A DNA stretch of 28,415 nt from an uncultured Planctomycetaceae bacterium. Lineage in GTDB: Bacteria; Planctomycetota; Planctomycetia; Pirellulales; Thermoguttaceae. This document shows, in pieces, positions 811-10,192 of this stretch. Under the pieces are notes generated by a model. The model searched no databases. It saw only the letters and a list, made by a program, of their open reading frames with translations, and was not told the origin of the DNA. A program made the position numbers and the translations under genes. How positions within the stretch are numbered: the stretch's first letter is position 1; the number at the start of each line of letters is the position of its first letter. The stretch lies in NCBI GenBank assembly GCA_964392255.1, contig CAYMQL010000002.1, forward strand, positions 1-28,415. The letters are read 5' to 3'.

Positions 811-3800
811 TTACGGACCCTTGCTTGCGGCTTCTGCCGCCGCCCGACGTAGATTCAACTCCAGCAGCTTGGCCAGCAGTTCCTCGTCGCTCATGCCGGG
901 GTCCCAGCCGTAGGCCGCGAACACCACGGCGTCGAGCTTCTGGTGGGCCAGTTCTAGCCAAGCCGGCCGCTCGTTGTAGAGGTTCGTCAGCGTCCGCTTT
1001 TTGAGACTCTCGGCACAGTCGGGGTCTTTTGGGACCAATCGCGGCCAGCGGACCGTGCCGATGGATTGCATCGGCTGCACCGTGGCCGGGTCGATGTAGC
1101 GGGCCCACGGCCCGTCGACCGAGCCGGGAAACTCGATCACTTCGGTCTTGGTCCACTCGGGCGGATTAAGCCAGCGGTTGCGGAGTTCGTCCAATTCCCG
1201 CGCCGCGGCGGCAATCGCCTCGCGTAGGGCAGGCAATTTGCCTGCCGATTCTGCTGCCGCCCTTTTTCCCGCCTTCTTCCCGCCGCGCTTCGCTGCGACA
1301 GGCAGGATGCCCGTCCTACGATCGTCCCACACACACTCCGGCAGCGGAAACGTCTCGAAACAGCTCGTCGGCGTGTAACGCGGCCGAGTTTCCAGTTGCG
1401 TTCCGAGCCGCAACGCCCAAACTTCGTGGATGCGGGAATGCAAGACGCCAAAGAAGCAGTCGTCGGAACGGGCAAAAGCAATTAGCTGGTGATCCGGCAG
1501 GACCGGTGAGCAGAACCACACAAAGAGCCGATGTTTCGACACGGTTGTCGTAACAACGACACGGCTCAACGGACGAAGTGCTGATCGCATCGCGGGACGC
1601 GGTTCGACATGAATCCACCAGCGTTCCCTGTATGACTGCCGCTTGTTCTTCACTCTTTCTGGACGAACCTCTTGCGTTACGCGATTGAAAGGCGATTCGT
1701 AGCAAGCGGCCTCCTCGATGGGCATATCCACCCCGAAGTCGATTATCCAGAAGTTACGGGGCCGCCGAGTAATATCCATTCCATTGATCCAAGGAAGCAC
1801 CACATCCGAGTTTGGACGCCCGTGCGGGTTGGGGGAATGCAGCATTTCAACTGCAAGCTGTTCGGGAAGGTCAAATGCGCCCCCTTTCGTGTCGGCCATG
1901 AATGATAAAGCACGATTCTGTCGCATCAACTGCGCCGTGGTCGTATCCGCAGTCGCTCGCAGGTTCGCGTTGATCTGCGCAACCGGGTTCCCGTCAAGGA
2001 TGCGGGCGGTCTGTTCGCCGCGGTCGAATCCCAGCATCGAGACGTGTACATTGGCCCCGTCGAGTACCCAGTCGCGGTCGCTTTCGGCGAAAAACACGTC
2101 GCCCGTCTGCTTGATCCGCTCGACCACCTTTCGATTTGCGCCGCCGCGAATCCCCTGAGTGGCCAGAAGACCCGCGCGCGAACATCGAGCGCGTTCAATG
2201 TGTCGCCGAGCGATCTCGAACCAATAGCAGCACAGGTCGGCCTCGCGCGGCACGCGGTCGGCCCAGACGCGGAACATGGCGTCCACGTAGTCGTCGCCCA
2301 AATTGGTCCGCAGCAGTTTTCCGCCCAGAAATGGCGGATTTCCCACGATAAACTCGGCGGCGGGCCACTCGGGCTCCTTCGGATGCTTGGGGTCGGAGAG
2401 GTCGAGAATCGCGTCCTGGCAGCGGATATTTTCGATCGGCTGCAACACCGGGTCGTCGGGCGTTTTGAACCCGTTGTGGTGCATCCACTGCAAATAGCCG
2501 ATCCACAAAACCACCTGGGCCAACTGCTGGGCGTAGGGGTTGATCTCGAGCCCGGAGAGTTGCGTGGGATCGACGTGGGGCACCAGCGACAGCCCGCGCG
2601 CGGCCGCGTAGCCGATCACCTCTTTCTCCAAATCCAACAGCAATTTGACGGCCACGTAGAGGAAATTGCCCGAGCCGCAGGCCGGATCGAGTACGGTGAC
2701 GTGGTGCAGCCGCTCGGCGAAGTCGAGGATGGCGCGGTCGAAGGTTTTGCGGGCCTTCGAGTCGCGGGCGGCGCTGCCGCGGCGCCCGGCCTGGACCTTG
2801 GGCCAAAGCCGCTCTTCGCAGCGCTGTTTGACTTGTTGCCACTCGCGCCGCAGCGGGGCCATCAGCACCGGCTCCAACAGCGTAAGGATGTCGGCCTCGC
2901 TGGTGTAGTGGGCACCGATCTGCGAGCGCTTCGCGGGATCGAGGGTCCGCTCGAAGAGCGTGCCGAAGATCGAGGGCTCGACGTTCGCCCAGTCGTAGCC
3001 GTTGATCGCGGCGAGGATGTTGATTTCCTGGGCGTTTAGCGGGATGGCCTCGTTGTCGGCGAACAGCCCGCCGTTGAATCGCAAAATGGTTTCGGCCCCG
3101 TAGTCGCCGCCGACGGCCATGGCGCTGAAGAGCGATTGCAGCCGCCGGGTGAGCATGGCCGGATTGGCCTTGGCGGTTTCCAGCAGCTTGCCGAACAGCT
3201 TTGGCGGCAGCAAGCCAATGTCCTCGCCGAACATGCAAAACATCAGCTTCATCAGGAAGTGGGCCGCCCGCTGAGGCGAGACGTCCTTGTGCATCCGCAG
3301 CCGCTCGGCCAGGTCGCCGAATCGCTCGGCGGCCTCCTTGGTGATGGCCTCGGCATGGAGGTCGGGCCGCAGGGCGTCGGGCTCGGCGAACAGCTTGCGC
3401 AGGATGTCGAGATTGGCCGGCTGGGCCAGCCCGTCGAGATCGAAAGCATAAACCCGCTTCGTCGTGTTGGTGAAGTTCGTGTGAATCTCGAAGCGGTTGA
3501 GGTCGCAAACGACTAGCAGCGGCGGGTTCTCGAGGTCCTCGCGGTAGTCGAGCAATTGCTGGTAGGCAGAGGCAAGGTTTTTGTGAGGCCCCTTGTACTC
3601 CCAACCGAAATGGCCGCGCATCCAGACGTCGGCCCAGCCTTGGCCGCCGGCGGTTTTGCGGACTCCGCGTTCGAAGGCATACCAAGCGCCGTCGGGATCG
3701 GCGGCGGCGGGTTTGGGCTGACCGAGCAGTTCGCAGAGGTCGAGAAAGTGCTGCTGGCAGGCGCTGCGTTCCGAGAGATTTGCCCGCTGCCACTTAGCGA

Positions 3801-3819
3801 TGAATTGCTGAGGAGTCAT
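811..3819 (-). CDS. MmeI-like type IIL restriction-modification enzyme (fused nuclease, N6-adenine methyltransferase and target recognition domain), 1002 aa
   Basis: Start re-placed at ATG 3819 (MTPQQFIAKW). Contains a PD-(D/E)xK-like ADVW...WEYK motif, SAM-binding VLDPACGSGNFL, catalytic GNPPF and a C-terminal RTLTNLYNERPAWL. Confidence 0.9.
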   Translation of the reverse strand: MTPQQFIAKWQRANLSERSACQQHFLDLCELLGQPKPAAADPDGAWYAFERGVRKTAGGQGWADVWMRGHFGWEYKGPHKNLASAYQQLLDYREDLENPPLLVVCDLNRFEIHTNFTNTTKRVYAFDLDGLAQPANLDILRKLFAEPDALRPDLHAEAITKEAAERFGDLAERLRMHKDVSPQRAAHFLMKLMFCMFGEDIGLLPPKLFGKLLETAKANPAMLTRRLQSLFSAMAVGGDYGAETILRFNGGLFADNEAIPLNAQEINILAAINGYDWANVEPSIFGTLFERTLDPAKRSQIGAHYTSEADILTLLEPVLMAPLRREWQQVKQRCEERLWPKVQAGRRGSAARDSKARKTFDRAILDFAERLHHVTVLDPACGSGNFLYVAVKLLLDLEKEVIGYAAARGLSLVPHVDPTQLSGLEINPYAQQLAQVVLWIGYLQWMHHNGFKTPDDPVLQPIENIRCQDAILDLSDPKHPKEPEWPAAEFIVGNPPFLGGKLLRTNLGDDYVDAMFRVWADRVPREADLCCYWFEIARRHIERARCSRAGLLATQGIRGGANRKVVERIKQTGDVFFAESDRDWVLDGANVHVSMLGFDRGEQTARILDGNPVAQINANLRATADTTTAQLMRQNRALSFMADTKGGAFDLPEQLAVEMLHSPNPHGRPNSDVVLPWINGMDITRRPRNFWIIDFGVDMPIEEAACYESPFNRVTQEVRPERVKNKRQSYRERWWIHVEPRPAMRSALRPLSRVVVTTTVSKHRLFVWFCSPVLPDHQLIAFARSDDCFFGVLHSRIHEVWALRLGTQLETRPRYTPTSCFETFPLPECVWDDRRTGILPVAAKRGGKKAGKRAAAESAGKLPALREAIAAAARELDELRNRWLNPPEWTKTEVIEFPGSVDGPWARYIDPATVQPMQSIGTVRWPRLVPKDPDCAESLKKRTLTNLYNERPAWLELAHQKLDAVVFAAYGWDPGMSDEELLAKLLELNLRRAAAEAASKGP
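1223..1320. repeat. GTAG-type REP doublet (inverted pair) lying in frame inside the R-M gene
   Basis: 1223-1247 CGTAGGGCAGGCAATTTGCCTGCCG and the reverse complement of 1296-1320 (CGTAGGACGGGCATCCTGCCTGTCG) match at 19 of 25 positions. Each arm has an 8-bp hairpin after GTAG. Confidence 0.75.
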
Positions 3820-4136
3820 AGTAATCCGAGGAATCCGCAGGACTTGCGTCAAGCAGCCAAAATGAGAGTTGCCCCCAGAATACGCGTTGCTTCGACCGTC
3901 AGCGGCTTGTGGTAAGCCATGGAAACGCCCTGCGAACGTGCAGAGGCGTGGACGCAGGAAAAATATACCCCGCGTATCCGCCGCACACAAGCGCCGCGCA
4001 CGGTAAATGGGACAGTCCCCCGGATTCGGCCAATTGCTTGACTTGTCGCCGGCTCACGGGTAGGCTGTAAGGAGCGTTTGCGACGCTTTTTATCAACCTC
4101 TTATACTGGGCTGCTAGACTGCAAAGGGCCAACAAA

Positions 4137-5942
4137 ATGCGTCTCCGGCCATTCTCGTGCGGCGCTAACGGACTCATAACTCTCGCAATCCTTGCGGCTC
4201 TCATCTTCGCGGATTGCCGCGATGTTCGGGGCGCGGCGATTATCATTGATCACACGCGGACGAACATCACCGCGATTTCCGAAGAGGCCATCCTCGACGC
4301 GAAACAGAAATTGCACATCGCCTACGCACATACCTCGCACGGCAGCCAAGTGACGTACGGAATGACCGGGCTGGTGGCTTTCGCCAACGGCCACGGCAAA
4401 GGATTGGACTTGCCCACGAACATCTTCGCCTGGAACAACGGCGGCACGGGCGGCGCACTCGACCTGCACGATTATTTCGTCGAGGGCGACCTGGGCAACC
4501 CGGACCGCGTCACCTGGGCAAGCCGCACGCGCACGTATCTCGATAACCCGGCCAACAGCGACGTCAACGTCGTCATGTGGTCGTGGTGCGGGCAAGTGGG
4601 CGGAACAGAGGCCGAGATCAATACCTACCTGAACTTGATGAACCAACTGGAAATCGATTATCCCCAAGTCAAGTTTGTCTATATGACCGGGCACTTGAAC
4701 GGCAAGGGCTTGACCAGCAGCGTGCATCTTCGGAACGAACAGATTCGCAACTACTGCCGCGCGAACGACAAAATCCTTTACGACTTCGCCGATATCGAAA
4801 CCTACAATCCCGACGGCGTTTATTTTGGCAACAAGTATCCCGACGACGATTGCTCGTACGATCCCGACGGGGCGCTGCCTCGCAATGGCTCGGGCAATTG
4901 GGCCATCGAATGGCAAAACAGCCATACGCTGAACGTCGATTGGTACGACTATGAGGCCGCCCACTCGCAACCGCTCAACGGCAATCAGAAGGCCTACGCG
5001 GCGTGGGCCCTTTGGACCAGCATCGCCGCCTCGCTCGACCCGAACGTCACTTGGACGGGCGGCGGCGGTTCTGATTGGAGTACGGTCGCCGGATCGGGCA
5101 ACTGGAAGAGAACCAGCGACGGCATCTCAGCCAACTACAGCAACGGCGCCGAGGTGGTCTTCGACGATAGCGCCACGGGTTCATTGACCGCCAACATCAG
5201 CGCGGCAAACGTGTCGCCGGCCAGCGTCGTTTTCAACAACTCCAGCAAAGATTTTCACGTCGCGGGTTCCAAAGGCATCGTCGGCGACGCAACCGTCCTC
5301 AAACAGGGCACGGCCAAGACGACCCTCAGCAGCGTGAATAGCTATTCCGGCCGCACGACGGTCGAAGGCGGCACGCTGCAACTCAACGGCGCAGGGGCCC
5401 ACAACCCGGTTCTCAATCTCGGCGGCGCGGATATCAAGGCGGGCAAAATGGTTTTCGACTACGCCGGCGGCAGCGATCCGAGAACAACAATACGCAGCTT
5501 GCTGACCGCCAGCTATCACAGCGGCAGCGCAACGCACTTCGACACCGGCAAGTTCCAAAGCTCGACGGCCGACGCCGATTATGGTTTAGGCTGGACGACG
5601 ACAATCAATTATCAAGTGATCGTTGCCCGCACGCTCTACGGCGACGCCACGCTGGACGGGGACGTCGGGGTTTCCGATCTGGCGGCCTTGGGGCAAAACT
5701 GGAACGGCGCGGAGAAGAACTGGGCTCAGGGCGATTTCAATTACGACGGCAAGGTCGACATTTCGGACCTGTCCCTGCTTGGTCAGCATTGGAATCAGAG
5801 CGCGGCCGGTTTTGCCGGCACAGCGACCGTGCCGGAGCCTGGAAGCATGATGCTGCTGGCAGCGGGCGGGGCAACGCTTCTGGGCCTCGCCCGGCGACGG
5901 AGCCGCAGGGGACGGCCTGCGGCCGCCAAGTGGATAGGGTGA
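4137..5942 (+). CDS. Secreted PEP-CTERM protein: SGNH-like N-terminal domain, autotransporter-associated beta-strand repeat, dockerin-like pair, PEP-CTERM anchor
   Basis: N-terminal signal-like hydrophobic stretch; VLKQGTAKTTLSSVNSYSGRTTVEGGTLQL; GDATLDGDVGVSDL...GDFNYDGKVDISDL; VPEPGSMMLLAAGGATLLGLARRRSRR. Confidence 0.85.
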   Translation: MRLRPFSCGANGLITLAILAALIFADCRDVRGAAIIIDHTRTNITAISEEAILDAKQKLHIAYAHTSHGSQVTYGMTGLVAFANGHGKGLDLPTNIFAWNNGGTGGALDLHDYFVEGDLGNPDRVTWASRTRTYLDNPANSDVNVVMWSWCGQVGGTEAEINTYLNLMNQLEIDYPQVKFVYMTGHLNGKGLTSSVHLRNEQIRNYCRANDKILYDFADIETYNPDGVYFGNKYPDDDCSYDPDGALPRNGSGNWAIEWQNSHTLNVDWYDYEAAHSQPLNGNQKAYAAWALWTSIAASLDPNVTWTGGGGSDWSTVAGSGNWKRTSDGISANYSNGAEVVFDDSATGSLTANISAANVSPASVVFNNSSKDFHVAGSKGIVGDATVLKQGTAKTTLSSVNSYSGRTTVEGGTLQLNGAGAHNPVLNLGGADIKAGKMVFDYAGGSDPRTTIRSLLTASYHSGSATHFDTGKFQSSTADADYGLGWTTTINYQVIVARTLYGDATLDGDVGVSDLAALGQNWNGAEKNWAQGDFNYDGKVDISDLSLLGQHWNQSAAGFAGTATVPEPGSMMLLAAGGATLLGLARRRSRRGRPAAAKWIG

Positions 5943-6480: not shown

Positions 6481-6556
<76 letters not shown>

Positions 6557-6631: not shown

Positions 6632-6865
6632 CTAAAGCCTCGGGCGACGATACCGGCGAGGCAGTTCATTCATTTTTGAGCACCGGGCAAGAAACATCCC
6701 CGAATCCACCGGCTTCACACGCCACTGCGACCGTCCACCCCGTTTGGTTGCCAAGTTCGCTGCGGGGAGTTCACCGTCGTTGATCCAAAGGCGAATCTTG
6801 TCGGGATGGATGCCCTATCGCTCGGCAAGCTCGAGTGGTGACAACGATACACGTTCATCGTACAT
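6632..6865 (-). pseudogene. Excisionase/HTH_17 (MerR-like winged helix) gene interrupted by an in-frame TAG
   Basis: AGGAG RBS precedes ATG 6865. Translation is MYDERVSLSPLELAER*GIHPDKIRLWINDGELPAANLATKRGGRSQWRVKPVD..., with the stop at codon 17 (6815-6817). Confidence 0.75.
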
Positions 6866-7278
6866 AGCCAAGACTCCTAAAGAAAAAGGGGACGCCGTCA
6901 AGGCTGCTCCCTCCACCCCCGCCAAGGGGCACAAGCAAACCGCGCAAGGCCGGCGTTCCCTTTTGAGGGAACGGGCTTCGCTGCTTTGCTTTGCTCAAGG
7001 GCTATTTGCCCAAGTTGGCGGTTTGGAGGGAAGCAGGTTGACGCCAAAAGGCGTCACGTCAAACTACGGGATTGATTCTATCTCAGTGCGGTACCATTGG
7101 AAATGCTCCGTCCAAACTGGCCAAAGACCTGCATTGTCACATATTCCCTAGCTCGGTATTATCTCGTTCGTGTCGTATCGGTTGAGCGGTTTGTGCAGAC
7201 GTGACCTGATCAATCACACCACCCACGAGGGTTGTTTCGTGCCTTTGCCGAGACACGTGTTAGGATTATCTAGGGTGA

Positions 7279-7308
7279 TTGTAGGCAAGTCGCCGAGTGT
7301 GGTAGTAT
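7279..7308 (+). promoter_or_regulatory. Putative sigma70 promoter of the islet operon
   Basis: TTGTAG-N18-TAGTAT with an extended -10 TG, about 28 nt upstream of ATG 7337. Confidence 0.3.
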
Positions 7309-7336: not shown

Positions 7337-8095
7337 ATGAGCGACAGTACCAAGAAGAATGAAATACCATCCGTTGGGATTCCTTTGCCACAATTCCAGG
7401 CCGCCGTTGACGCATTGGTCGCTTTGCGTGATTCCGGTAAGTTTCTTATCTTTCTCGGGCGTCGTTCGCGGGCAAGATTGATCGGTGATCTCAATGATTT
7501 TCAGGCGACGATGGCCGAGGTTGCGAAAGAGGCAGTCTCGCTGGAAGATGCCACCCGCATCCTTGACGAAATCAGAAGGTATTGCAGCGCATGTATGGAC
7601 ATGCAAGACGTCAAGGCGCTGAAACAGTTCCTCATGCGTGCAGTTTACGAAGACGACTTCACGAAGCACAAACGTCATAACGCAGAGCTTGAGAGACAAT
7701 TGGAAGCCAAGATCAAGCTTGTGTCGGGGAAGCTTGTTACGGACGCAATGAAGCAACGCTCAAAACGGATGCAGAGCGCTACCGTTGCTTGTTTAGAGGA
7801 CGTTGACGTCGAGATCGTGCAACATCGCCGTGAGAATTTCTCTTCTGCTAGCCGGAGTAGTGAGGAGGCATTTTTACGATTGAGGGTTCGGCATTCGGAT
7901 GGGGTGGACTTATCTGGCTCGATCTTCTTCCCATTTCACATGTGGGGTCCGTGGGAAGGCACAAACTCAAACGCATCTAGCTTCGAGATTGAATGCGATG
8001 AGTCGGACATTGACCTACTTGTGGTTCGTCTATTGGAAGCAAAAAACGCCCTTCTCAAAGCACGTGAGTCTTCGAGCGGCGAGAGTGTCACATGA
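7337..8095 (+). CDS. Hypothetical protein, 252 aa; helical N-terminus, C-terminus with a COMM-domain-like beta-beta-beta-alpha pattern
   Basis: GGAGGA RBS 6 nt before ATG 7337. The stop overlaps the next start (ATGA). The fold call is pattern inference only. Confidence 0.8.
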   Translation: MSDSTKKNEIPSVGIPLPQFQAAVDALVALRDSGKFLIFLGRRSRARLIGDLNDFQATMAEVAKEAVSLEDATRILDEIRRYCSACMDMQDVKALKQFLMRAVYEDDFTKHKRHNAELERQLEAKIKLVSGKLVTDAMKQRSKRMQSATVACLEDVDVEIVQHRRENFSSASRSSEEAFLRLRVRHSDGVDLSGSIFFPFHMWGPWEGTNSNASSFEIECDESDIDLLVVRLLEAKNALLKARESSSGESVT

Positions 8096-8949
8096 GCGAT
8101 AAAGCAAAGCACTTAATGACTACTCGTCACACAAATCTGTCTATTGAAGAGCCGACACAACAGGACGTTGCTTCGGCATCTTCTAGCGTGACAGAAATAC
8201 TGGAGCTTTTCAAGGAATTTCGGAACATGCCTTCGATGTCCCACGACAGCATTTCTAAGATTTGGCTTGAACAAGCTCTGGGTTCAGTACTCCGTGATCG
8301 AGAAAGAGAAGGATTTGTCCCTTCACACTGGGAAATCGAATCGGTTATTAAGAAGTGGTTGGCTATACGTTTAGAGAGCCACCCTTCTTTGGATGCCTTC
8401 ATTGTAACAAAGCAGACTCCTACAGAAGATGCCGAGAGTACACGATCCGAAAATGAACGCCTGCGGATTCAAGTAGATCGGTTGCGGTCTCAGGTAGAGA
8501 TGTTGAAGTCCCTTGTAGCCCAAGAACGTCGGGGCGCCGCTAAAGCAGTACGAATGCACGATCAGTTGTTGGCCCATCACGACGCGGCTGAGAAGAGCCT
8601 ACTCGATACCTTAGCGCAGCGAGATGGAGCGATTAGTACGATCCAGGCAGCCCTAATCGGCAAAGCTGAGGGGCGACTGTGTATGACGGAACACTATCAC
8701 GGTGAGGTAGTGGATGTTTCGGACAATCGAATCACAGCCGTCTTCCATATCGGCGATGAGTTGATAGAGCAGACATACGAGTCCAAGCAGTTCCTTGACG
8801 GCCAACTGCCCAATAAAGGCGATGAGTTGGAGGCGTGTGTCTACATCGCCAAATCTCTTCCAAGACAGCACGAAGCGGGTTCTTCTCATGGCACCGGCGA
8901 ATCACGAACACCACGGAGGAACGTCATCCCACTCCCGCGCACATTCTGA
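8092..8949 (+). CDS. Hypothetical protein, 285 aa; central coiled coil, C-terminal beta-rich (OB-like) domain
   Basis: ATGA coupling to the upstream gene; heptad-like ENERLRIQVDRLRSQVEMLKSLVAQE; beta-rich HYHGEVVDVSDNRITAVFHIGDELIEQTY...KGDELEACVYIA. Confidence 0.8.
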   Translation: MSDKAKHLMTTRHTNLSIEEPTQQDVASASSSVTEILELFKEFRNMPSMSHDSISKIWLEQALGSVLRDREREGFVPSHWEIESVIKKWLAIRLESHPSLDAFIVTKQTPTEDAESTRSENERLRIQVDRLRSQVEMLKSLVAQERRGAAKAVRMHDQLLAHHDAAEKSLLDTLAQRDGAISTIQAALIGKAEGRLCMTEHYHGEVVDVSDNRITAVFHIGDELIEQTYESKQFLDGQLPNKGDELEACVYIAKSLPRQHEAGSSHGTGESRTPRRNVIPLPRTF

Positions 8950-10021
8950 TTCAGTTTGTGTAGAGGTTCTTCTTTTTCCGTGTGGGCATGGCGACACGAT
9001 TCTGCTCAGGTTCCCAGGGAATCGTTGGGCCTTGATTGACTGTTATCTACCAGATAACGGAACACGTAAGGCTTTCTTCGACTTCGTGGAGGCGCAGGGC
9101 ATCCGGCGTCTGGAATGGATATTCCAAACGCATCCCGATCTGGATCATTTTTTCGGAATGACCGATGTCCTCGACTATTTCTCGCGTGAGGAAAGATCGC
9201 TCGGTTGTTGGTGTGACTCCGGCCTGAATGCAGCAGAAATCAGGGCGTTGATTAGGTGGGGAGGCATGAGTCAAACCGAATATGGAAAGCTCCAGAATCG
9301 GCTCGATGAATTGGACAGGGAGAACCGCATTCAATTTGTTGAACTCAACGATCGTGTAGAACCGATTTCGCCCGATGGCTTCACTGACAAGATCAACATC
9401 CAGCCAATTGGGCCAAGAGCGTGGTTGAAGCGGAGGAGTGTCCGCAAGGACATTGGTAAGTTCAGCACGAATCCGAATGCACGATTTGAAGCTAACGATA
9501 TTTCGGTAGTGCTTCTGTTGTTGATTCGACAGAATGGCAAAGACTGCAATATGCTTATCCCCGGCGATGCTGGGGCTGACGTGTTGTCCGATGCTCTTGG
9601 TGCATGGTCTGAACGGACTGGAGTCGTATCAGCTCCACATGTGTTCGATGTGATAAAGGTACCGCACCACGGCTCCAAAGCTTCGCATTCGCCTTCCCTC
9701 TGCAAATCCACGGCGAACAGTCCGTCTCGACGAATTGCAGCAATCTCGGCTGGTACAAGGAAGGCGTTGCCAGACCGTGAGGTTCTTCGGGACTATATCT
9801 CGGAGGGGTGGACTGTCGTAGCTACCACAACTCGCAAACTCGCTGATCGTGTGGATTCGCCGCTATTCCTCGCGGGCCGGCGTCAAAGCGATTCGGGGGG
9901 AGCCACGAAGCAACATCTGATCCGAATACGCTGGAGTCCAGCTAGCGGTTTGGAATATGAACCGCCGGAATCGACACTCGTCGAACTTGACCTTCCGATG
10001 TACGACACTGCAAGTACGTAG
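8888..10021 (+). CDS. ComEC/Rec2-type metallo-beta-lactamase-fold hydrolase (soluble, putative nuclease); start uncertain
   Basis: Motifs GHGDTILL, LIDC, THPDLDH, NDISVVL, PGDA, KVPHHGS and AISAG. The nearest in-frame ATG is 8888, overlapping the upstream gene. Confidence 0.88.
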   Translation: MAPANHEHHGGTSSHSRAHSDSVCVEVLLFPCGHGDTILLRFPGNRWALIDCYLPDNGTRKAFFDFVEAQGIRRLEWIFQTHPDLDHFFGMTDVLDYFSREERSLGCWCDSGLNAAEIRALIRWGGMSQTEYGKLQNRLDELDRENRIQFVELNDRVEPISPDGFTDKINIQPIGPRAWLKRRSVRKDIGKFSTNPNARFEANDISVVLLLLIRQNGKDCNMLIPGDAGADVLSDALGAWSERTGVVSAPHVFDVIKVPHHGSKASHSPSLCKSTANSPSRRIAAISAGTRKALPDREVLRDYISEGWTVVATTTRKLADRVDSPLFLAGRRQSDSGGATKQHLIRIRWSPASGLEYEPPESTLVELDLPMYDTAST

Positions 10022-10147: not shown

Positions 10148-10192
10148 TTCCTAAACCGTAGGTCGCAGGTTCGATTCCTGCCAGGCGCGCTT
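10148..10192 (+). repeat. attR, 45-bp copy of the tRNA-Arg 3' half
   Basis: Identical to 6512-6556. The 5' half of the tRNA is absent here. Confidence 0.95.

Follow-up and report, generated by a model that had tools for sequence, protein, structure and literature searches.

The window analysed here is the 28,415-nucleotide (nt) stretch at positions 1 to 28,415 of contig CAYMQL010000002.1 (forward strand; assembly GCA_964392255.1) from an uncultured Planctomycetaceae bacterium. On a small islet at a tRNA-Arg gene it carries three consecutive genes, referred to as A, B and C, the first of which (7337-8095) very probably encodes, judging from its modelled fold and from profile comparisons, a divergent bacterial homologue of the COMMD proteins. 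Gene A opens a self-promoted cassette of three genes, to which it is coupled in translation; in this cassette, gene B encodes a protein with a long coiled-coil helix and a small S1/OB-like β-barrel, and gene C a stand-alone ComEC-type hydrolase of the metallo-β-lactamase (MBL) fold. A preliminary description of this DNA had read gene A as COMMD-like and this interpretation is supported. The COMMD fold is already known in bacteria; the new element is that, on a mobile islet, it is constantly partnered by an adaptor of the coiled-coil/OB type and by an MBL hydrolase. The explanation that best accounts for the whole, and which we regard as probable, is that a divergent COMMD-like protein heads the A-B-C cassette as input or scaffold for an MBL nuclease, with genetic conflict as the likeliest setting.

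The gene A family

The start of gene A was assigned to the ATG at 7337 and not to the ATG at 7307, because a GGAGG sequence lies 8 nt upstream and all 13 close homologues begin at the same point. The forward open reading frame (ORF) proposed earlier was confirmed, and the C-terminal motifs on which the COMM assignment had been founded are in place, with CLEDVDVEIV at residues 152-161, AFLRLRVRH at 178-186, SFEIEC at 215-220 and DESDIDLLVVRLLEAKNALLK at 221-241. A word-indexed search with gene A recovered 13 relatives, while a full hidden Markov model scan of 1.84 billion representatives defined a family of 137 representatives at 50% identity (E<=1e-3), 93 of which are retained at E<=1e-30. The C-terminal motifs are the best-conserved stretch of this family, and their conservation across the 137 representatives is therefore far above chance.

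Predicted fold and structural relatives

The AlphaFold2 (AF2) monomer model of A, built from the 13-sequence alignment, has a predicted local distance difference test score (pLDDT) of 81.5 and a predicted template modelling (TM) score of 0.76. Secondary structure assignment with DSSP gives a helix at residues 17-32, a β-hairpin (strands 36-40 and 46-50) and six helices up to residue 147, then strands at 152-161 and 179-187, a low-confidence loop (193-210), a third strand at 213-220 and a closing helix at 222-251. The three-strand, one-helix COMM layout claimed for the C-terminus is thereby reproduced as β-β-β-α in the model. The accompanying claim that the N-terminal ~150 residues are helical holds for most of this part and fails for residues 36-50, where a conserved β-hairpin (LRDxGKFLIFLGRR) stands between the first two helices.

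In a Foldseek search of the PDB with the model, every one of the top 18 matches was a COMMD or COMMD-like chain, and 16 reached E<=0.011 at a probability of at least 0.97. The preliminary description had named the lack of a COMMD structural match as grounds for giving up its interpretation; such matches filled the head of the list. The bacterial COMMD-like octamer 9q6c_A and 9q6a came first (E 2-4e-4, probability 1.0), followed by the human COMMD ring chains 8p0w, 8f2r and 8esd, all at probabilities of 0.97-1.0. Chains consisting of the COMM domain only (6bp6_B, 8p0w_F, 8f2r_F and 8esd_S) superpose on A with TM scores of 0.72-0.78 and root-mean-square deviations of 2.9-4.6 Å. Full-length COMMD chains outscore these COMM-only chains 100-1000-fold, over alignments of 229-260 columns, which argues that the N-domain of A contributes to the match. 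Unrelated folds appeared only at E>0.3 and with low probability, and a viral fold library gave no match below E 0.2. Whirly/Pur-alpha and chlamydial CT584, considered as look-alikes for A, were not found within the top 50 Foldseek matches.

The residues of the predicted COMM sheet separate into two faces. One is hydrophobic, being formed by V156/V158/I160, L180/L182/V184 and F216/I218/C220. This face is compatible with an obligate COMM dimer of A and agrees with the rule for obligate dimers that Liu et al. quote (PMC13392464). The other face bears a near-invariant ladder of acidic, basic and acidic residues (D155/D157/E159; R181/R183/R185; E217/E219/D221), continued by D224 and D226 (residues 152-226, window 7790-8014).

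Sequence evidence and a tryptophan-bearing sister family

Several results weigh against the COMMD assignment of A. The Pfam COMM_domain model (PF07258, gathering threshold 22.4 bits) matches no member of the A family at E<=1, neither A itself nor any of the 13 homologues searched. Profile searches of the PDB with the A1 profile and with the merged 106-sequence profile A7 returned no COMMD protein, only spurious matches to NifU-like proteins, a designed TIM barrel and Med28. In addition, the TM scores of A to full-length COMMD chains are just 0.26-0.37, and the helical N-terminal (HN)-like domain contains a β-hairpin for which no COMMD precedent has been described. Such low global TM scores are to be expected when a single-chain model is set against protomers that are swapped and extended.

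The missing sequence link is provided in part by a sister family, A2, detected in the weak tail of the representative search and made up of proteins of 215-237 amino acids (aa) with the motif xxWEVxxRxxD. Alignment of A1 with A2 by hhalign extends over 220 columns with 99.7% probability (E 3.7e-26); the N-domain β-hairpin is common to both families. The best PDB match of the A2 profile is the COMM domain of human COMMD9 (E 0.077), aligned in register over the whole domain, with the A2 tryptophan on the tryptophan of LVDLDWRVD. Two A2 members also match Pfam COMM_domain from end to end (E 0.05-0.07, 13.7-14.1 bits, which is below the 22.4-bit threshold). Single sister-family proteins searched against the PDB gave nothing relevant. 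The same hhalign alignment places V158 of A on the invariant tryptophan of A2, in agreement with the earlier remark that the conserved COMM tryptophan is a valine in this protein. Among 94 full-length representatives of the A family, position 158 is most often V (36), F (15), A (11), I (10), Y (7) or T (5), and never W. This loss is not disqualifying, since several of the ten exemplar prokaryotic COMMD-like proteins of Liu et al. have few or no tryptophans (PMC13392464).

The A2 genes have a setting of their own. In the five loci inspected (L017-L021), the gene after A2 overlaps it by 1 or 4 nt and encodes a protein with two C-terminal transmembrane helices; in L020 and L021, this partner gene is itself followed by one for another small membrane protein. 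A metagenome scan with a narrower A2 alignment retrieved just four short contigs.

The A-B-C cassette

The loci of A relatives that were examined come from contigs of Thermoguttaceae, Pirellulaceae, Planctomycetaceae, Candidatus Anammoximicrobium, Hydrogenedentales and Chthoniobacterales and from several metagenomes, and cover three phyla. Genes A, B and C occur in the same order and on the same strand in 12 of 14 sequence-distinct loci. The overlaps between the genes are also kept, A and B sharing ATGA or 8 nt and B and C about 50-60 nt. No conserved neighbours beyond A-B-C were found among these loci. Departures from the common arrangement are seen in L006 (6748-13417), disrupted by insertions, in which A is separated from the B-C pair by ~7 kb containing IS1-type transposase and Endonuclease_7 genes, and in L008 (1219-2889), in which A precedes a B-like protein that has the coiled coil and another C-terminal domain in place of the barrel, with no MBL gene after it.

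Comparison with the locus of a near relative, L022, delimits the cassette. The two DNAs are similar only from window position 7132, at the promoter, to 10030, 9 nt past the stop codon of C, with 91-95% identity, except for the segment 8078-8446, which has no DNA similarity. At the protein level, 222 of 252 residues are identical in A, 358 of 377 in C and 155 of 175 in the C-terminal part of B; in the first ~110 residues of B the figure falls to 26 of 101. Because this segment (window 8092-8421 against L022 1255-1626) is so divergent beside the 88-95% of the remaining cassette, the N-domain of B appears to have been exchanged as a module. The coordinates of the cassette and of the islet are collected in Table 1.

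Other genes adjoin the cassette at some loci. In L025, the gene immediately upstream of A-B-C (1978-3429) matches HEC-01A, a candidate defence ATPase of PADLOC, over its full length (E 6.9e-152). A gene resembling type III restriction endonucleases (REases) neighbours the cassette in L014, and a VapC-like PIN gene, recognised by reading the sequence, adjoins it in L010.

Table 1. Features of the islet and of the A-B-C cassette (positions in the window)
Feature	Position	Strand	Evidence
tRNA-Arg(CCT), integration target of the islet	6481..6554	+	ARAGORN
attL, within the 3′ half of the tRNA; left copy of an exact direct repeat of 45 nt	6512..6556	.	repeat search, family D1
Excisionase-like helix-turn-helix pseudogene, in-frame TAG at codon 17	6641..6865	-	translation, MYDERVSLSPLELAER before and GIHPDKIRLWINDGELPAANLATKRGG after the stop
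Promoter-like site TTGTCA-17-TATTAT	7134..7162	+	sequence; DNA similarity to L022 begins at 7132
Gene A, COMMD-like protein, 252 aa	7337..8095	+	ORF list, homologue alignment, AF2/Foldseek, hhalign
A residues 1-147, helical HN-like domain with inserted conserved β-hairpin (36-50)	7337..7777	+	AF2 DSSP, Foldseek
A residues 152-252, COMM-like: β1 152-161 (V158 at the Trp position), β2 178-187, variable loop 188-212, β3 213-220, helix 222-251	7790..8092	+	AF2 DSSP, Foldseek, hhalign
Gene B, 285 aa, start overlaps the stop of A (ATGA)	8092..8949	+	ORF list, alignments
B residues 1-110, hypervariable N-domain, 26/101 identical to L022	8092..8421	+	L022 comparison
B residues 114-193, single 80-residue helix, coiled-coil type	8431..8670	+	AF2
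B residues 198-252, small S1/OB-like β-barrel; part of B that always accompanies C	8683..8847	+	AF2, Foldseek, locus comparison
B C-terminal tail RRNVIPLPRTF; conserved motif RRxxIxGPxEF / PLPRTF	8914..8946	+	alignments
Gene C, 377 aa from ATG 8888, stand-alone hydrolase with the ComEC-type MBL fold; shares 62 nt with the end of B	8888..10021	+	Pfam, PADLOC, NCBIfam, PDB
attR, right copy of the 45-nt repeat	10148..10192	.	repeat search, GC profile

The products of genes B and C

Confidence in the AF2 model of B is uneven along the chain, with an overall pLDDT of 66.5. The N-terminal part is helical and poorly predicted, the long helix lies mostly at 88-96 and drops to ~71 at its C-terminal end, the barrel reaches 85-90 and the tail is disordered. 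A structure search with the barrel points to S1/OB-type domains, including those of NusA, DHX8, bS1, RRP44, eIF5A and Mop (E 0.02-0.2, probability 0.9-1.0). A word-based search with the barrel region retrieved only B itself and its L022 counterpart.

Gene C encodes a ComEC-type MBL hydrolase with intact metal motifs, for which nuclease activity is predicted. It matches Pfam Lactamase_B (8.9e-6) and the MBL domain of ComEC in the PDB (9ic4, 2e-6), and nine orthologues all keep the metal-motif residues H82, D86, H87 and D227. Among named families, its best matches are MBL proteins of defence systems, namely Avs1a (5.7e-12) and 6A-MBL (4.6e-10) in NCBIfam, and LmuA (2.8e-11) and PDC-M48B (1.6e-10) in PADLOC, all far below the family cut-offs. 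The ComEC-type MBL core is common to C, to the ComEC domain and to these anti-phage effectors (Avs1a, 6A-MBL, MBL-type LmuA and PDC-M48B). Unlike those MBL systems, the cassette has no STAND NTPase, SMC-like LmuB, other ATPase or ComEC membrane domain, and the partners of its hydrolase are a COMMD-like protein and an OB/coiled-coil protein.

Each of the systems suggested by these relatives was considered for the cassette and set aside. AVAST type 1 (Avs1a with Avs1b) would require 420 bits, of which C reaches 45, and a STAND NTPase partner, whereas neither A nor B has an NTPase domain. In the case of Lamassu, C matches LmuA only in part, A and B do not match LmuB or LmuC, and the SMC-like LmuB ATPase is absent. 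For 6A-MBL and PADLOC PDC-M48, C reaches 39 bits against the 6A-MBL cut-off of 220, with no match to PDC-M48A in A or B. Finally, a ComEC/Rec2 competence channel does not apply, as the 377 residues of C match the terminal MBL part only and there is no polytopic competence membrane domain.

The islet and its surroundings

A block of low GC content (~50%, against 60-65%) begins directly after tRNA-Arg(CCT), and the host-type GC content returns beyond attR. No integrase gene lies between the att repeats. Because the excisionase-like gene is broken by a single TAG and the repeats enclose no integrase, the 3.6-kb islet is grounded. The earlier proposal, according to which a COMM-like gene and an enzyme of nuclease type are coupled on a mobile element, is borne out by the 45-nt att repeats at the tRNA-Arg gene and by the A-B-C synteny across loci. 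Mobility is also supported by the low GC content and by the unit held in common with L022, whose limits are exactly the promoter and the stop codon of C.

Two further genes of the window lie upstream of the islet. A complete type IIL restriction-modification (R-M) enzyme of the MmeI family is encoded at 811-3990 (-), 2.5 kb upstream of the tRNA-Arg islet, with matches to all of its N-terminal, helicase-spacer, methyltransferase and target recognition domains. Between this gene and the tRNA, at 4137-5942 (+), lies the gene of a PEP-CTERM-anchored protein that contains dockerin repeats as well as a repeat of the autotransporter type.

The barrel and hydrolase pair under other N-terminal domains

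Seven relatives of C (35-49% identity) were looked up independently of A. In all seven, a barrel-plus-tail protein overlaps the start of C, and the part in front of the barrel varies. It is a short helical part in L023 and L029, the former also having a CsrA gene after C, and an N-domain of no recognised type in L028, where an extra unassigned gene lies upstream. Three loci, none of which has A, carry recognisable domains at this place. A CsrA domain and a coiled coil precede the barrel in L024 (1081-1836); a receiver domain does so in L026 (2821-3477), behind a GAF histidine kinase; and a TIR_2 domain is fused to the barrel in L027 (707-2119), in a protein of 470 aa with the tail RRRPKNFVPLPRTF. 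Since the same pair occurs under differing N-terminal domains in these seven C loci, the barrel and the MBL hydrolase are best described as a portable effector pair. A, together with the N-terminal part and helix of B, looks like one of several alternative input or scaffold front ends for this pair.

Comparison with known COMMD proteins

Prokaryotic COMMD-like rings were published in 2025-26, with octameric and decameric homo-rings solved (Liu, Collins, Healy et al., Nat Commun 2026, PMC13392464). The PDB entries 9q6a and 9q6c correspond to MBK5214510 from a Flavobacteriaceae bacterium (PMC13392464). The family described there comprises 250 bacterial sequences assembled by Foldseek-detectable homology to COMMD, and its function was called 'currently unclear' (PMC13392464). 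Neighbours resembling the type VI secretion system were reported in Myxococcota, and no complex with neighbouring gene products could be predicted; it was suggested that the oligomers of these bacterial proteins may depend on 'additional components' to be stable (PMC13392464). Nuclease, lactamase, phage and defence do not occur in that paper (PMC13392464).

A resembles these bacterial proteins in being encoded by a single gene, in its length (about 220-250 aa), in its mostly helical N-domain followed by a three-strand, one-helix COMM domain and in having them as its best Foldseek match. Like them, it is not detectable by sequence when compared with eukaryotic COMMDs. It is unlike them in its low identity (~14%), its N-domain β-hairpin, its charge ladder and its place in an operon that also encodes an MBL hydrolase and a protein of the coiled-coil/OB type.

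With the eukaryotic COMMD1-10 ring (8p0w, 8f2r, 8esd, 6bp6), A probably has the two-domain fold in common. In Commander, the HN domains of the COMMDs hold CCDC22 and CCDC93, which are coiled-coil proteins and to which the 80-residue helix encoded by the gene adjacent to A may be compared. The differences are an identity of 9-15%, the lack of the β1 tryptophan and of a Pfam COMM match, and a presumably homomeric assembly. B is unrelated to CCDC22/93, and the context of A is a nuclease cassette, whereas that of the eukaryotic COMMDs is membrane trafficking.

Possible role of the cassette and alternative explanations

By analogy with the solved bacterial COMMD-like proteins, A would dimerise through its COMM domain and build a ring of 8-10 subunits. 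This ring could bind the long helix or the N-domain of B, much as the COMMD ring binds CCDC22/CCDC93, and the barrel and tail of B would in turn hold C. A and the N-terminal part of B would in that case form an input or scaffold module that restrains or positions the MBL nuclease; the exchangeable N-domain of B may sense a trigger, upon which the MBL enzyme would degrade nucleic acid. That A acts physically with B and C is, on balance, what we would expect. The likeliest setting for such a device would be genetic conflict, either anti-phage defence or addiction to the element.

A role in conflict or defence is made plausible by the tRNA islet, by an occurrence in three phyla, by the exchange of a sensor-like domain, by the variant with a TIR domain, by the affinities of C to defence proteins and by the presence of defence genes nearby in three contexts, these being the MmeI-type R-M enzyme in the window, the HEC-01A ATPase (L025) and the type III REase-like gene (L014). 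We propose this role tentatively, with slightly less than even confidence. The most complete version is unlikely. In it, a COMMD-like ring would hold B and, through the barrel and tail, the nuclease, and this bacterial assembly of a ring and a coiled-coil partner would parallel in architecture the COMMD-CCDC22/93 core of Commander. The assembly would do the sensing or scaffolding for a mobile immune system, the effector pair of which also occurs in TIR-, receiver- and CsrA-linked versions.

Several observations weigh against assigning the cassette to defence, or A to a central place in it. Because only one of the seven independently sampled C relatives (L025) carries A, the other six combining the barrel protein and C without it, A is dispensable for the effector pair. 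The pairs found under a GAF kinase and receiver or a CsrA domain suggest ordinary regulation, not immunity. No A relatives were found in IMG/VR contigs, phage genomes or plasmids. A and B match no PADLOC or NCBIfam model, and no component of the cassette qualifies under a curated defence model. Lastly, the neighbours of the cassette are mostly housekeeping genes.

In an alternative that we consider unlikely, A is COMMD-like and acts as the structural regulator of a physiological nuclease or RNA-turnover module, directed at cellular nucleic acid in response to signals. The barrel and MBL pair is fused to a receiver behind the GAF histidine kinase (L026) and to CsrA (L024), with CsrA also encoded after C (L023), the barrel of B resembles the S1 RNA-binding domains of NusA, DHX8, bS1 and RRP44, the MBL fold is that of RNase J, RNase Z and CPSF, and the flanking genes are mostly of the housekeeping kind. 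An att-bounded islet of low GC content, a patchy distribution over phyla, a hypervariable N-domain in B, a TIR-fused variant and the proximity of C to defence MBL effectors are traits of conflict systems and speak against it.

The part of genetic conflict that concerns addiction can also be taken alone, and the trio would then be a toxin-antitoxin-like module that stabilises the mobile element without any anti-phage role, C being the toxin and A and/or B its neutralisers. A compact, self-promoted and coupled operon that remains intact on an islet with a broken excisionase gene and no integrase would suit such a module, as would the VapC-like PIN gene beside the cassette in L010, read from the sequence only. 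This explanation is quite improbable. For a type II toxin-antitoxin system it would be unusual to have the nuclease in last position, behind two large proteins, and to include a sensor-like domain that is hypervariable; scans with domain libraries found no antitoxin-type DNA-binding domain in A or B.

Least likely of all is that the COMMD resemblance is convergent or an artefact of modelling, A being an unrelated α+β protein whose C-terminal three strands and helix are a coincidence: although A has no significant direct sequence match to COMM models, its model was built from 13 sequences only and has low global TM scores (0.26-0.37), and Liu et al. mention CT584 and Whirly/Pur-alpha as look-alikes of uncertain relationship (PMC13392464), all 18 leading Foldseek matches are COMMD or COMMD-like chains with both domains aligned, the look-alikes fall outside the top 50, and the sister family bears the COMM tryptophan in the homologous strand and has COMMD9 as the best PDB match of its profile, in register.

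Implications for COMMD-like proteins

With the reading of A as the COMMD-like head of a cassette that controls an MBL nuclease, a conserved mobile trio with an MBL output and a coiled-coil partner reminiscent of CCDC22/93 makes the role and the binding of a prokaryotic COMMD ring testable. The cassette also brings to light a portable pair, an S1/OB barrel and a ComEC-type MBL hydrolase, that is wired to COMMD-like, TIR, receiver and CsrA inputs. Should the sensor or scaffold role in a mobile immune system prove true, it would provide the first function for prokaryotic COMMD-like proteins, and the core of Commander may then descend from the scaffold of a conflict system.

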